Origin: an uncultured Bacilli bacterium
GTDB lineage: Bacteria > Bacillota_I > Bacilli_A > RF39 > UBA660
Direction: 5' to 3'
DNA: 60,202 nucleotides
NCBI GenBank assembly: GCA_944359085.1
Contig: CALVSQ010000002.1
Span: 1-60,202, forward strand
This document shows, in pieces, positions 951 to 3,041 of this stretch. The stretch's first letter is position 1; every line of letters begins with the position of its first letter. The notes under the pieces were generated by a model, which had not been told where the DNA came from, did not search any database, and saw only the letters and a list, made by a program, of their open reading frames with translations. A program made the translations under genes and the position numbers.

Positions 951-1166
951 ATGAGTCACGAATATTTTAAAGAAAATTTAGAAGCTATTAATGCAGAAAG
1001 TCAACAAAAACAAATGGAAAAAGATTTAATGTATCAAAATATGATATCAGAAGGAAAACAAAAACAAGAAGATTGGAAATTAAAAATGGGATTATATGAT
1101 TTATCTAAAACACCTGATATATTAAAAGATGTTGAACAAGAGAAAAAAAGTTTTAGAACAAGATAA
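951..1166 (+). CDS. small charged hypothetical protein (71 aa)
   Basis: ORF starts 12 nt after the queA stop and is preceded by AAGGAG. It is Lys/Glu/Gln-rich with no motif I recognise. Confidence 0.4.
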   Translation: MSHEYFKENLEAINAESQQKQMEKDLMYQNMISEGKQKQEDWKLKMGLYDLSKTPDILKDVEQEKKSFRTR

Positions 1167-1309
1167 TACATAAATATTATTTATAAAGATAATTAGTCTT
1201 TGATTATTAATAAAATTATATAGTGAAGAATGATTGTTTTTTTTGCTTAATTTTACTAATAAAATATTATATTAATATAAGAATAATTAATTAAAAATTA
1301 ACAAAAATA

Positions 1310-1338
1310 TTGTATACAAAGTTAATTTATAGTATAAT
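1310..1338 (+). promoter_or_regulatory. sigma-A-type promoter of small-peptide mRNA, copy 1 (copy 2 equivalent at 1659-1687)
   Basis: TTGTAT-17 nt-TATAAT at 1310-1315/1333-1338. Copy 2 has TTGTGC-17 nt-TATAAT at 1659-1664/1682-1687. Confidence 0.5.
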
Positions 1339-1401
1339 TATATATAGGGAATATTAACTGTTGGGTACTTGCCGAGTTCTACAAGAAGGAAACAGATAAT
1401 T

Positions 1402-1491
1402 ATGAAGAAAAAAGATTTATTAATCTCATATCTAATCCTAATTATCATTTTATTAACAATATCTTTATTGATATTATGTATAAAAAAATAG
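1402..1491 (+). CDS. candidate type I toxin peptide, 29 aa (MKKKDLLISYLILIIILLTISLLILCIKK)
   Basis: Not in the ORF track because it is too short. AAGGA lies upstream. The peptide has a basic N-terminus, a ~20-residue hydrophobic span and a basic C-terminus. The mRNA 5' end (1347-1369) pairs with its 3' end (1537-1567), which is followed by a T-run. Confidence 0.5.
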   Translation: MKKKDLLISYLILIIILLTISLLILCIKK

Positions 1492-1594
1492 TACTAATCA
1501 AATTGATTAAGTACTTACCAAAACAAATCATAGGTGAGTACTCAACATAGCAAAGTTAAGTATTCCCTTTTTATTGTATGCAAGTTTCCTTGAC
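1481..1594 (-). ncRNA. candidate antisense (antitoxin) RNA, copy 1; ends approximate
   Basis: Minus strand carries TTGACA (rc of 1624-1629)-17 nt-TACAAT (rc of 1601-1606). Hairpin 1490-1515 is followed on the minus strand by a T7 run (rc of 1482-1488). The RNA would be complementary to the peptide mRNA 3' end. Confidence 0.45.
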
Positions 1595-1751
1595 AAATAC
1601 ATTGTATCATAAATTAATATGTTTGTCAAAATAAATTAATTAAAAATTAACAAATTTATTGTGCATAAAGTTAATTTATAGTATAATTATATATAGGGAA
1701 TATTAACTGTTGGGTACTTGCCAAATTCTAAACGAAGGAGGCTAGATAATT

Positions 1752-1841
1752 ATGAAGAAAAAAGATTTACTAATAACATTCTTAATTCTAATTATCATTT
1801 TATTAATAGTGTCATTAATGATATTATGTATAAAAAAATAG
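1752..1841 (+). CDS. candidate type I toxin peptide, 29 aa, copy 2 (MKKKDLLITFLILIIILLIVSLMILCIKK)
   Basis: AAGGAGG lies 10 nt upstream. 24 of 29 residues match copy 1, and all 5 changes are conservative. The 5'-3' mRNA pairing is the same (1696-1718 with 1887-1917), followed by a T-run. Confidence 0.5.
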   Translation: MKKKDLLITFLILIIILLIVSLMILCIKK

Positions 1842-1944
1842 TACTCAATCTAACTGATTAAGTACGAATCTTAAATCAATAAGGTGAGTACTTAACATAG
1901 GAAAGTTAAGTATTCCCTTTTTATTATATGCAAGTTTCCTTGAC
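1831..1944 (-). ncRNA. candidate antisense (antitoxin) RNA, copy 2; ends approximate
   Basis: Minus strand carries the perfect consensus TTGACA (rc of 1974-1979)-17 nt-TATAAT (rc of 1951-1956). Hairpin ~1840-1865 is followed by a T-run on the minus strand. The -35 element lies inside the last codons of the upstream minus-strand GT gene. Confidence 0.45.
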
Positions 1945-1964
1945 AAATACATTATATCATTTTT

Positions 1965-3041
1965 TTATTTTTCTGTCAAAGTTTTCTCAATTATAATTTT
2001 ATTATTAATTAATCTTTTATCTAAAGGACTAATTTCTAATGCTTTATTAATATTATCTAATGATTTTTGATAATCTTTTAAATTATAATATGCTATAGAT
2101 AAGATATCATATACAGTATGATCCCAACTAAATGGTTCATTAATATAACTTTTAGCGTGAGTTTTAATTTCTAAAGCTTGATTGCAATATTTAATTACAT
2201 TATCCCATTCTTTTAATTGATAATATAATAAAGCTAACTCAATATAAGAATCTCTTAAATATGGTGCTTCTACAATAGCTTTATTAAGCCACATTTTAGC
2301 TTCTTCCAATCTATTTAAATTTTTATAACATCTTGCAATAAATCTCATTGATGCACATCTTTCATCTTTCCACAAAGCTGTAGGCAGTGATAAATGTTTT
2401 AATAGCATATCAATAGCTTCATTCCATCTTTGACGAAACATATATTCACGACCTAAATAATGAGTATTTCGATCATTAGTAGGATCTTCCTTAACTGCTA
2501 ATTCTAATAAAGGTAAATAGCTAGATCTAGATTTAGTATTATCTGGAAAATGTTCAATTGTTAAATTATCACAAGTTATAAATTTTTCTTCATTATCACA
2601 TTTTAATATTTCATGAACAGGGTTAACCCATTTATAGTTTTTGCGACTATGTATTTTATCACATAAAAAATTTACAGCTGGTTTTCCATATTCATCATGA
2701 CTCCAAATGTAATTGTATCTTAGTCTTGTAGTATCTTCTTTCCAATTATTTAAAATAATTTCTTTCCAACCTTCAACTAAAACTTCATCTAAATCTAAAG
2801 CAATACAAACATCGAAGTCTTCTGGTATCATTTCTAAAGATAAATTTCTTGCTACATCAAATCGCCATGGATCTATTTTTTTTTGTTTAACTACAATTCC
2901 ATGGCTTTTTAATTTATTGACTGTATCATCTGTAGATCCTGTATCAAGTACGTAAATTCCATCAGCCTCTTTAGCTGATTCATAAAATCTATCGACAAAT
3001 TTTTCTTCATTTTTACAAATTGCATAAACACATATTTTCAA
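1965..3041 (-). CDS. family-2-like glycosyltransferase with C-terminal TPR repeats
   Basis: N-terminus MKICVYAICKNEEKFVDRF..VLDTGSTDDT..LDLDE resembles a GT-A fold with a DxD motif. The C-terminal half has repeated TPR-like helices (RCYKNLNRLEEAKMWLNKAI, ALLYYQLKEWDNVIKYCNQALEI, IAYYNLKDYQKSLDNINKALEI). Confidence 0.7.
   Translation of the reverse strand: MKICVYAICKNEEKFVDRFYESAKEADGIYVLDTGSTDDTVNKLKSHGIVVKQKKIDPWRFDVARNLSLEMIPEDFDVCIALDLDEVLVEGWKEIILNNWKEDTTRLRYNYIWSHDEYGKPAVNFLCDKIHSRKNYKWVNPVHEILKCDNEEKFITCDNLTIEHFPDNTKSRSSYLPLLELAVKEDPTNDRNTHYLGREYMFRQRWNEAIDMLLKHLSLPTALWKDERCASMRFIARCYKNLNRLEEAKMWLNKAIVEAPYLRDSYIELALLYYQLKEWDNVIKYCNQALEIKTHAKSYINEPFSWDHTVYDILSIAYYNLKDYQKSLDNINKALEISPLDKRLINNKIIIEKTLTEK

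Follow-up and report, generated by a model that had tools for sequence, protein, structure and literature searches.

What the two adjoining repeats of about 350 bp at positions 1285-1980 do is the question raised by a 60,202-nucleotide (nt) stretch of DNA from an uncultured Bacilli bacterium (assembly GCA_944359085.1, contig CALVSQ010000002.1, forward strand, referred to here as the window). The repeats lie head to tail between a 71-amino acid (aa) open reading frame (ORF) downstream of queA and a convergent glycosyltransferase gene. A first-pass annotation had read them as a duplicated type I toxin-antitoxin (TA) module with five parts per unit: a plus-strand promoter, a transcript whose two ends can pair, a Shine-Dalgarno (SD) sequence with a 29-codon ORF, a near-perfect or perfect promoter on the opposite strand, and a minus-strand hairpin with T7 that would end a short antisense RNA. 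All five parts were found in both copies at the positions it had given. The conserved ORF, the conserved structure, the antisense promoter and the loss of the toxin gene in decayed units support this proposal, and we consider it likely that both units are chromosomal type I TA modules of a previously unannotated family. The two units and their matches to a family profile are as follows.

1285-1633, plus strand: unit 1, complete module, direct repeat with unit 2 (nhmmer family-profile match 1310-1630, score 242.6)
1634-1980, plus strand: unit 2, complete module, direct repeat with unit 1 (nhmmer match 1658-1981, score 251.3)

They share 86% identity across 349 nt (blastn E = 9e-114), with differences mainly in loops and spacers, and no further copy was found by blastn in the 60-kb window.

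Related units in genomes and metagenomes

Relatives were collected by two scans, and the loci that they recovered carry numbers with the prefix L. The first used a degenerate peptide-level DNA pattern, M-[KR]3-[DE]...C-x-[KR]2-stop, on one genome per GTDB species and matched at least 119 loci; the unit is present in at least about 55 species-level genomes, where it is conserved as peptide plus structure. The second was anchored on the antisense 5' motif GTCAARGRAAYTTGCATANAATAAAA; as this motif is not part of the toxin mRNA, the scan does not depend on the ORF. It matched at least 120 metagenome loci, among them 99 distinct units with enough upstream sequence. The metagenome-assembled genomes (MAGs) among the matches listed are labeled uncultured Bacilli, Tenericutes, Mollicutes, Mycoplasma sp. 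and Erysipelotrichaceae and come from rabbit, goat, deer, mouse and human guts, the closest carrier listed being Candidatus Faecisoma merdavium. In the loci recovered, the nhmmer unit profile found 79 copies, including tandem arrays of two or three (L104, L032, L040, L063 and L095) and two dispersed copies in one MAG (L061 and L090). Synteny with the window neighbors (QueA, orf71, the glycosyltransferase and MiaA) is limited to the very close relatives L059 and L104; elsewhere the neighbors are diverse housekeeping genes such as those for MutS, ScpB, UvrD, tRNA synthetases, Dus, TsaD and DNA ligase.

The peptide reading frame

1385-1392, plus strand: SD sequence of ORF 1, GAAGGAAA, weaker than that of copy 2 and partly masked by a local hairpin
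1402-1491, plus strand: ORF 1, 29 aa, MKKKDLLISYLILIIILLTISLLILCIKK (ORF list; identical peptide in L095, L096 and L104)
1734-1741, plus strand: SD sequence of ORF 2, GAAGGAGG
1752-1841, plus strand: ORF 2, 29 aa, MKKKDLLITFLILIIILLIVSLMILCIKK (ORF list; identical peptide in copies 2 and 3 of L104)

The two ORFs share 24 of 29 residues and encode a basic N-terminus, a hydrophobic core of ~20 residues and a C-terminal Lys-Lys, so that the predicted product has the build of a single-pass membrane peptide. A small (<60 aa) hydrophobic ORF of this membrane type with its own SD sequence is a generic mark of type I toxins. The consensus of the near-identical 29-aa form, termed class A, is MKKKDLLISFLILIIILLIVSLMILCIKK, and at least about 60 loci carry it. 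Among 44 distinct coding sequences the ratio of nonsynonymous to synonymous differences (pN/pS) was 0.17 (pS 0.30, pN 0.05), and the per-site entropy at codon positions 1/2/3 was 0.30/0.09/0.39. These values indicate that the 29-codon ORF is a real coding sequence under purifying selection. Since that set had been ascertained through an intact ORF, the ORF-independent scan was run on metagenome contigs, and 80 of the 99 distinct antisense-anchored units contained an intact small hydrophobic ORF with the expected end.

At least five classes of peptide are carried on one common RNA scaffold, all of them basic, then hydrophobic, then usually basic again. Examples are:

class A: MKKKDLLISF...
class B: MKTKTFIIKVLKLIAIILFLLIIMIVVIKK
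class C: MNKKDFLILFLLIIIYLLIALLFTITK
class D: MTKREFSLFIIILLLFLVVIILLLK
class E: MRKSEKYLCTIIILLIIVILIILIKIVPTV

In two metagenome loci (L146 and L165) the toxin stop codon is mutated, for example from TGA to TGG; the resulting peptides are six residues longer and run into the antisense-terminator region.

The predicted toxin mRNA and its closing helix

1310-1338, plus strand: toxin-1 promoter read from the sequence, TTGTAT (1310-1315), 17-nt spacing, TATAAT (1333-1338)
1659-1687, plus strand: toxin-2 promoter read from the sequence, TTGTGC (1659-1664), 17-nt spacing, TATAAT (1682-1687)
1347-1572, plus strand: predicted toxin-1 mRNA, ~226 nt (RNAfold -58 kcal/mol, z = -6.4)
1696-1922, plus strand: predicted toxin-2 mRNA, ~227 nt (RNAfold -59.9 kcal/mol, z = -6.5)
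1347-1373, plus strand: 5' leader of copy 1, the 5' arm of the closing helix, pairing with 1533-1567 (RNAfold)
1533-1572, plus strand: 3' arm of the closing helix in copy 1, identical with the toxin-1 terminator hairpin, plus U5
1696-1722 and 1883-1917, plus strand: 5' and 3' arms of the closing helix in copy 2, followed by U5 at 1918-1922
1886-1915, plus strand: terminator-like site of the copy 2 toxin

The toxin -35 boxes match only three of the six consensus positions, which is why they were not listed by the promoter scan. The same asymmetry is seen in the 55 ORF-anchored units, in which the -10 box is TATAAT in 43 and the -35 box is a weak TTGTnn. The start of the toxin-1 mRNA was placed from the -10 box and its end from the terminator hairpin with U5 at 1568-1572. 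None of 200 shuffled sequences folds as well as either predicted mRNA.

Folding of 1347-1572 and 1696-1922 with RNAfold, proposed as a check in the first-pass annotation, closed both molecules through pairing of their 5' and 3' ends as it had foreseen. The helix is longer than the ~23 bp that had been described, namely ~27 bp, and its 3' partner needs correction: what the 5' leader pairs with is the terminator hairpin itself, along both arms. The helix is kept in relatives by compensatory changes. Standard pairs occupy 92.7% of its cells in an alignment of 55 sequences (A1), and 13 of its 27 pairs change on both sides; none of 500 shuffles reached any of the observed measures, and control helices slid along the alignment had at most 50% of their cells paired. 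A strong duplex of leader and 3' end was likewise predicted in 96% of the 80 ORF-bearing metagenome units, in all peptide classes, at a mean of -33 kcal/mol versus -13 kcal/mol with shuffled 3' segments. A long-distance 5'-3' interaction that is maintained by covariation is a feature of the Hok/Sok and AapA/IsoA type of system.

The leader also resembles a part of the antisense RNA. Its sequence, GGGAAUAUUAAC joined to UGUUGGGUACUUGCC, is essentially that of antisense hairpin B (GGGAAUACUUAAC-loop-UGUUGAGUACUCACC) without the loop, and where the two differ, transitions have replaced Watson-Crick pairs by wobbles. This mimicry persists in diverged peptide classes. For the same 36 nt, the 3' hairpin by itself had a mean energy of -7.8 kcal/mol, the duplex of leader and 3' end one of -31.7 kcal/mol and that of antisense RNA and 3' end one of -60.7 kcal/mol. 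Given the first two values, the terminator should refold into the closing helix after transcription, and given the last two, the antisense RNA should be able to displace the leader.

The SD sequence is mostly paired, with a mean unpaired probability of 0.27-0.32 versus 0.54 for 23 control genes of the window (p = 0.002). RNAalifold gave no consensus for the 5' untranslated region (UTR) owing to indels, and the masking of the SD sequence was scored per sequence instead.

The predicted antisense RNA

1629..1601, minus strand: antisense-1 promoter, TTGACA-17-TACAAT, TG-extended, 11/12 consensus positions
1979..1951, minus strand: antisense-2 promoter, TTGACA-17-TATAAT, TG-extended, 12/12 consensus positions
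1481-1594, minus strand: predicted antisense RNA 1, ~114 nt, complementary to the toxin mRNA at 1481-1572 (fold z = -3.3)
1831-1944, minus strand: predicted antisense RNA 2, ~114 nt (fold z = -4.7)
1482-1515, minus strand: antisense-1 terminator, hairpin 1515..1490 plus U7, seen in the fold, with a covarying hairpin
1865..1841, minus strand: antisense-2 terminator hairpin, followed by T7 (terminator scan)

Each predicted antisense RNA is slightly longer than the ~110 nt first suggested. Its perfect complementarity to the toxin mRNA extends over 92 nt, from the last codons through the entire 3' UTR. With this complementarity and a promoter and terminator of its own, the antisense gene has, in silico, what defines the antitoxin of a type I system. 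The promoter is kept in 54 of the 55 ORF-bearing units; it is conserved with TTGnnn, 17-nt spacing and, in 53 of the 55, a TG-extended -10 box. The terminator scan found two terminator-like sites in the region, with 0.0 expected from shuffles. The C-terminal Lys-Lys codons of the ORF double as the source of the U-tract in the antisense terminator (A7 at 1482-1488 and 1832-1838).

The predicted fold of antisense RNA 1 consists of a 5' GAAA-capped hairpin of four base pairs, hairpin B and the terminator hairpin. Hairpins were defined from single-sequence folds and their pairs were then counted in an alignment of 53 sequences (A2), where the three elements are standard-paired in 91.6% of the cells and 18 of 30 pairs show compensatory changes. 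A long-range helix that RNAalifold proposed on the antisense alignment was spurious, caused by a repeated AGUACU motif. Loops and the spacer between hairpins are the most variable parts of the A2 consensus, and the stems are conserved; variable loops of this kind may provide a loop-based recognition that insulates paralogues, so that each antisense RNA would act on its own mRNA. Four loci (L050, L024, L052 and L114) have an extra insert of ~15-20 nt in the 3' UTR (A1 columns 217-232) that duplicates the GATTAAGTAC hairpin arm and places a further AGUACU-type motif between the two hairpins.

A pairing bias specific to each strand points to a functional RNA from the plus strand and another from the minus strand. 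Two hairpins each hold a plus-strand C·A mismatch (in 48 of 55 sequences at columns 252:268 of A1), and on the minus strand the same two positions form a U·G wobble in 44 of 53 and, in the terminator hairpin, 41 of 53 sequences. For the closing helix on the plus strand the ratio of G·U to A·C was 139:39, and for the hairpins on the minus strand it was 151:39; neither these counts nor the pair counts are phylogenetically independent. A bias of this kind is the product of selection on RNA pairing, and it argues against an inverted repeat that acts at the DNA level.

Decay of the units

Among the 99 antisense-anchored units, the toxin gene is inactivated in 19. There are two independent losses of the start codon from ATG to ATA (L141 and L201), nonsense mutations in L150 and L212, and a deletion of the SD sequence and ATG in L173/L217; 13 units are 5'-truncated or antisense-only remnants. 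The reverse, an ORF without its antisense partner, was seen in one of the 55 ORF-anchored units. This asymmetry is significant (19/99 versus 1/55, Fisher p = 0.002) in a comparison of two sets that come from different collections, each conditioned on one partner. A toxin that is untenable without its antitoxin, together with an antitoxin that is harmless alone, would predict exactly such lopsided decay.

Remnants also occur among the genome loci (L040:5347-5455, L050:3506-3622, L063:5941-6059, L072:5669-5782 and L118:869-966), along with one frameshifted unit copy (L032:2-306). Orphan antisense genes in the metagenomes (L162, L184, L190, L210, L229, L230 and L240) retain the promoter and hairpins, and the toxin promoter and ORF are deleted or truncated. 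The remnant in L230 adjoins the C-terminal end of an IS3-like transposase ORF.

A toxin or a beneficial membrane protein

Several observations weigh against the type I TA reading. We infer both toxicity and transcription, and the ends of the transcripts are predicted. The peptides match no known toxin family in Pfam, NCBIfam or PDB. Each comparative set was assembled by way of one partner and consists of members related by descent, so that the counts given above are not counts of independent events. The class A peptide is unusually conserved, being nearly invariant over about 50 species, and the class A unit is mostly single-copy and placed among housekeeping genes, a pattern that would also fit a beneficial small membrane protein. 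One ORF-bearing locus, L023 (4717-4944, minus strand), lacks the antisense promoter and the 3' arm; and two variants (L007:3156-3536 and L058:1398-1778) have an unrelated 5' UTR without the 5' arm or the closing helix. In addition, modelling of 55 mRNAs gave no consistent change in SD accessibility when the antisense-bound region was blocked (p = 0.83), the modelled change being upward in some subfamilies and downward in others, and direct translational control by the antisense RNA is thus not supported by this modelling.

An SR4-like switch, in which antisense binding frees the leader to finish sequestering the SD sequence, found no support as a general mechanism in the same modelling, in which it holds solely in subfamilies with a CCUCC anti-SD sequence. 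In L023 the 3' half is replaced by unrelated sequence and the toxin -10 box is weakened to CATAAT; this may be a decaying locus, or one covered in trans by another copy. The L007 and L058 variants retain the class A ORF and the antisense half, with a different promoter and a weak SD sequence, and L058 is labeled Muribaculaceae, probably because of a mis-binned contig.

The alternative that survives best is that the peptide is not toxic but a small membrane protein of benefit to the cell, such as an accessory subunit of a membrane complex, and that a cis-antisense RNA tunes its level. Apart from the conservation and copy number just described, it would agree with the lack of any enrichment for a mobile-element family among the unit neighbors, with the absence of the unit from PLSDB and INPHARED by blastn and from the viral scans (IMG/VR) with the peptide pattern, the 5' leader and the antisense 5' motif, and with weak, below-cutoff similarity of the peptides to the transmembrane segments of SecE and MgtR. 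We nevertheless regard it as unlikely. The genomic position of the unit is not conserved between species, tandem arrays hold two or three diverged copies, the divergent peptide classes share one RNA scaffold, the ORF has been lost repeatedly by start change, nonsense mutation or truncation with the antisense gene retained, and the units are oriented in a way that strongly avoids transcription running into the sense strand. Each of these traits is typical of a selfish or toxic cassette and not of a core subunit.

Position behind tRNA genes and other gene ends

The first-pass annotation had remarked that the -35 element of the copy 2 antitoxin lies within the last codons of the glycosyltransferase gene, so that read-through could add antitoxin transcription. 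The coordinates bear this out: the -35 box covers Leu-Thr codons of that gene and its stop codon (1967..1965) falls inside the spacer of the antisense-2 promoter, and therefore the glycosyltransferase mRNA must read into antisense 2. The remark turns out to reflect a rule of orientation across the family: of 46 genome loci, 38 have an antisense-side neighbor that points the same way as the antisense RNA and so converges on the toxin gene (binomial p = 9e-6). Such a bias is readily explained if transcripts that enter the sense strand of the toxin are selected against.

In 17 of the 46 genome loci (L113, L086, L071, L053, L061, L029, L088, L081, L079, L027, L050, L103, L115, L118, L093, L036 and L101) a tRNA gene is that neighbor, with its end 16-46 nt away from the unit. 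Among 110 antisense genes of the metagenome set (L121-L240), 36 start 52-87 nt downstream of the end of a tRNA gene; all 36 tRNAs are co-oriented with the antisense RNA and they represent 17 different anticodons. The unit junction falls right after the encoded CCA of the tRNA, and the sequence from there to the antisense start is conserved across different tRNAs. This stretch consists of an optional small hairpin module, GATTGATAGGAAACTCGAACTTTTCGAGTAACAATAG, and then a terminator-like hairpin with a U-run over the antisense promoter, AAAACGACTTGTCAAAAAGTCGTTTTT (for example L086:2553-2650 on the plus strand, L132, L139 and L215), so placed that its 5' arm and loop hold the antisense -35 box and the promoter spacer holds the U-run. 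The window copies have neither the embedded terminator nor the small hairpin module, and tRNAs without an adjoining unit have unrelated, ordinary terminators.

A precise junction after the CCA of many tRNAs is not accounted for by selection on orientation, and the unit has no recombinase. We hold it less likely than not, but conceivable, that the unit is more than a further TA pair, namely a self-contained cassette specialized for landing right behind tRNA genes (after CCA) and other 3' gene ends, with a terminator fused into the antisense promoter and a leader that is a weakened copy of the antitoxin. If this were true, toxin control would be a three-way competition of terminator hairpin, leader mimic and antisense RNA, coupled to transcription of the adjoining tRNA or gene.

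The same location could be taken to mean that the unit is a transcription-boundary cassette, that is, a bidirectional terminator or insulator after tRNA and protein genes in which the ORF is secondary or incidental. In 83% of loci a co-oriented gene ends next to the unit, and a tRNA gene does so in 33-37%; each unit has three hairpins that resemble intrinsic terminators, and a terminator-like hairpin with a U-run overlaps the antisense promoter. A terminator, however, needs neither a selected 29-codon ORF (pN/pS as above), nor an SD sequence, nor two conserved promoters; simple, unrelated terminators serve the tRNAs that lack the unit; and the window copies do without the promoter-embedded terminator, so that we find this explanation very improbable. 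A non-autonomous DNA repeat of the miniature inverted-repeat transposable element (MITE) type, whose terminal inverted repeats would be the arms and whose ORF would have arisen by chance in AT-rich DNA, is scarcely credible and was rejected, because the 27-bp imperfect inverted repeat that bounds a ~226-bp segment, its many different genomic sites and its preference for tRNA 3' ends are set against a coding signal in the codon-position pattern and low pN/pS, a strand-specific G·U bias at the RNA level in arms and opposite-strand hairpins alike, one to three copies per contig that are tandem rather than dispersed, and conserved promoters outside the inverted repeat.

A proposed mode of action

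On the type I TA reading, the plus strand would give a ~226-nt mRNA for a 29-aa membrane-type peptide. After termination, energetics and covariation suggest that the 27-nt leader would invade the terminator hairpin and form the long closing helix. The closed mRNA would be compact and probably stable, with the SD sequence partly masked by a short local hairpin, and the closing helix likely has two roles, protection of the ends, giving a stable mRNA, and gating of antisense access. From its stronger, TG-extended promoter the minus strand would give a ~114-nt antisense RNA that competes with the leader for one 3' target and would win thermodynamically (about -61 versus -32 kcal/mol). Duplex formation probably begins at the hypervariable loops and would displace the leader. 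By analogy with bsrG/SR4 and txpA/RatA, the duplex would expose the toxin mRNA to RNase III and other RNases, and no peptide would be made; were the antisense supply to fall, peptide would be made and would be expected to damage the membrane. An RNase III signature was not found in the 60-kb window, a result that is uninformative.

Comparison with known type I systems

The first-pass annotation could not place the peptide in any named family, and database searches agree. Rfam gave no family match to the window region (E <= 10) or to six related loci (E <= 1); chance matches to miR-430, SSRC38 and MicX were dismissed, and the remaining matches were neighboring tRNAs. No Pfam or NCBIfam family reached its cut-off for six peptide classes, the sub-threshold matches being transmembrane-segment noise, and no relative of the peptides was found in PDB. 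Ten peptide variants were absent from about 15 billion predicted proteins, a word-based protein search with a 40-aa extended ORF gave no homologue, and the peptide strings were not found in the literature searched.

That annotation had also drawn its analogies from hok/Sok, txpA/RatA and bsrG/SR4. The convergent, 3'-overlapping geometry that it recognized is indeed that of Gram-positive type I systems whose antisense RNA covers the toxin 3' end (PMC8594479); its comparison of the mRNA closure with the fbi pairing of hok is less apt, as helix P1 of bsrG is the closer analogue because the closing helix here does not contain the SD sequence. In bsrG mRNA, P1 joins nt 1-35 with nt 232-262, and the SD sequence lies in a 4-bp duplex (PMC3834814). 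The likeness to bsrG/SR4 of the Bacillus subtilis SPβ prophage (and to bsrE/SR5 and yonT/SR6) extends to a small hydrophobic peptide with a basic C-terminus, a convergent 3'-overlapping antisense RNA from the stronger promoter, and an mRNA closed by a long 5'-3' helix with the SD sequence in a short local duplex (PMC3834814). The architecture is therefore shared, but homology was not detected: there is no detectable peptide similarity and no match to any Rfam family. The leader here pairs with the terminator hairpin, whereas that of bsrG pairs upstream of a terminator that is an element of its own; at ~114 nt versus ~180 nt, the antisense RNA is shorter here; the SD extension of the SR4 type was not reproduced in modelling; and the unit is chromosomal, beside tRNA and housekeeping genes, and not in a prophage.

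In txpA/RatA of the B. subtilis skin element the overlap with the antisense RNA likewise lies 3' on the toxin mRNA and takes in the last part of the ORF, and control is thought to run through RNase III-dependent mRNA decay (PMC3834814, PMC8594479). TxpA, however, has 59 aa, about double the length, and is not related by sequence, and no match to the RatA covariance model was found. With hok/Sok of plasmid R1 and aapA/IsoA of Helicobacter pylori the unit shares a full-length mRNA locked by a covarying 5'-3' interaction (PMC6733600). In those Gram-negative families, which have unrelated peptides (there is no Hok_Gef match here), the 3' end carries an anti-SD sequence, the antisense RNA binds the 5'/ORF region and 3' trimming activates the mRNA, whereas here the SD sequence is outside the closing helix and the antisense RNA targets the 3' arm of that helix. 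The fst/RNAII (par of pAD1) and SprA1/SprA1AS systems resemble the unit in being Gram-positive and convergent, with membrane peptides of ~30 aa and shared terminators (PMC8594479), but their RNAs interact functionally at the 5' translation-initiation region and not within the overlap, and their peptides carry Fst/PepA1 motifs with no Pfam or NCBIfam counterpart here. By analogy, then, the units would work like bsrG/SR4 and would form a new family of type I TA systems that belongs to no named one.

The description of T1TAdb (PMC8594479) lists 24 families and never mentions Tenericutes, Mollicutes or Mycoplasma. Judged by the databases and literature searched, uncultured, genome-reduced gut lineages of the Bacilli/Mollicutes-like kind appear to have had no type I TA family described before this one, and its peptides are invisible to gene callers. 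The comparative set of more than 150 units spans at least five peptide classes and includes covarying helices on both strands, toxin genes knocked out naturally and orphan antitoxins; it defines testable RNA structures and specificity loops without prior experiment. The association with tRNA ends and the fusion of terminator and promoter raise questions of how the cassette moves and of whether antitoxin supply is coupled to transcription of the neighbor.

The window and its surroundings

The G+C content of the window is very low (values of about 23-25% and of 20-28%), the GC skew is strongly positive over almost all of 1-60202, so that the cumulative skew climbs steadily, and tRNA genes are not present in its 60 kb. 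An ENA metagenome scaffold matches the window at 99.9% identity, and the QueA of the window shares 98% identity with its counterpart in Candidatus Faecisoma merdavium (L104), a taxon assigned by NCBI to Mycoplasmatota incertae sedis. UGA is a stop codon in some family members, and therefore the standard bacterial code applies. The 71-aa ORF between queA and unit 1 (951-1166, plus strand) has no Pfam match on record and is 89% identical in Candidatus Faecisoma merdavium. An A/T-rich motif, AATTAATTAAAAATTAAC, stands at the upstream edge of each unit (1285-1302 and 1634-1651) and recurs solely in the close relatives L032, L059, L095 and L104; it could be an UP-like element or a duplication junction.

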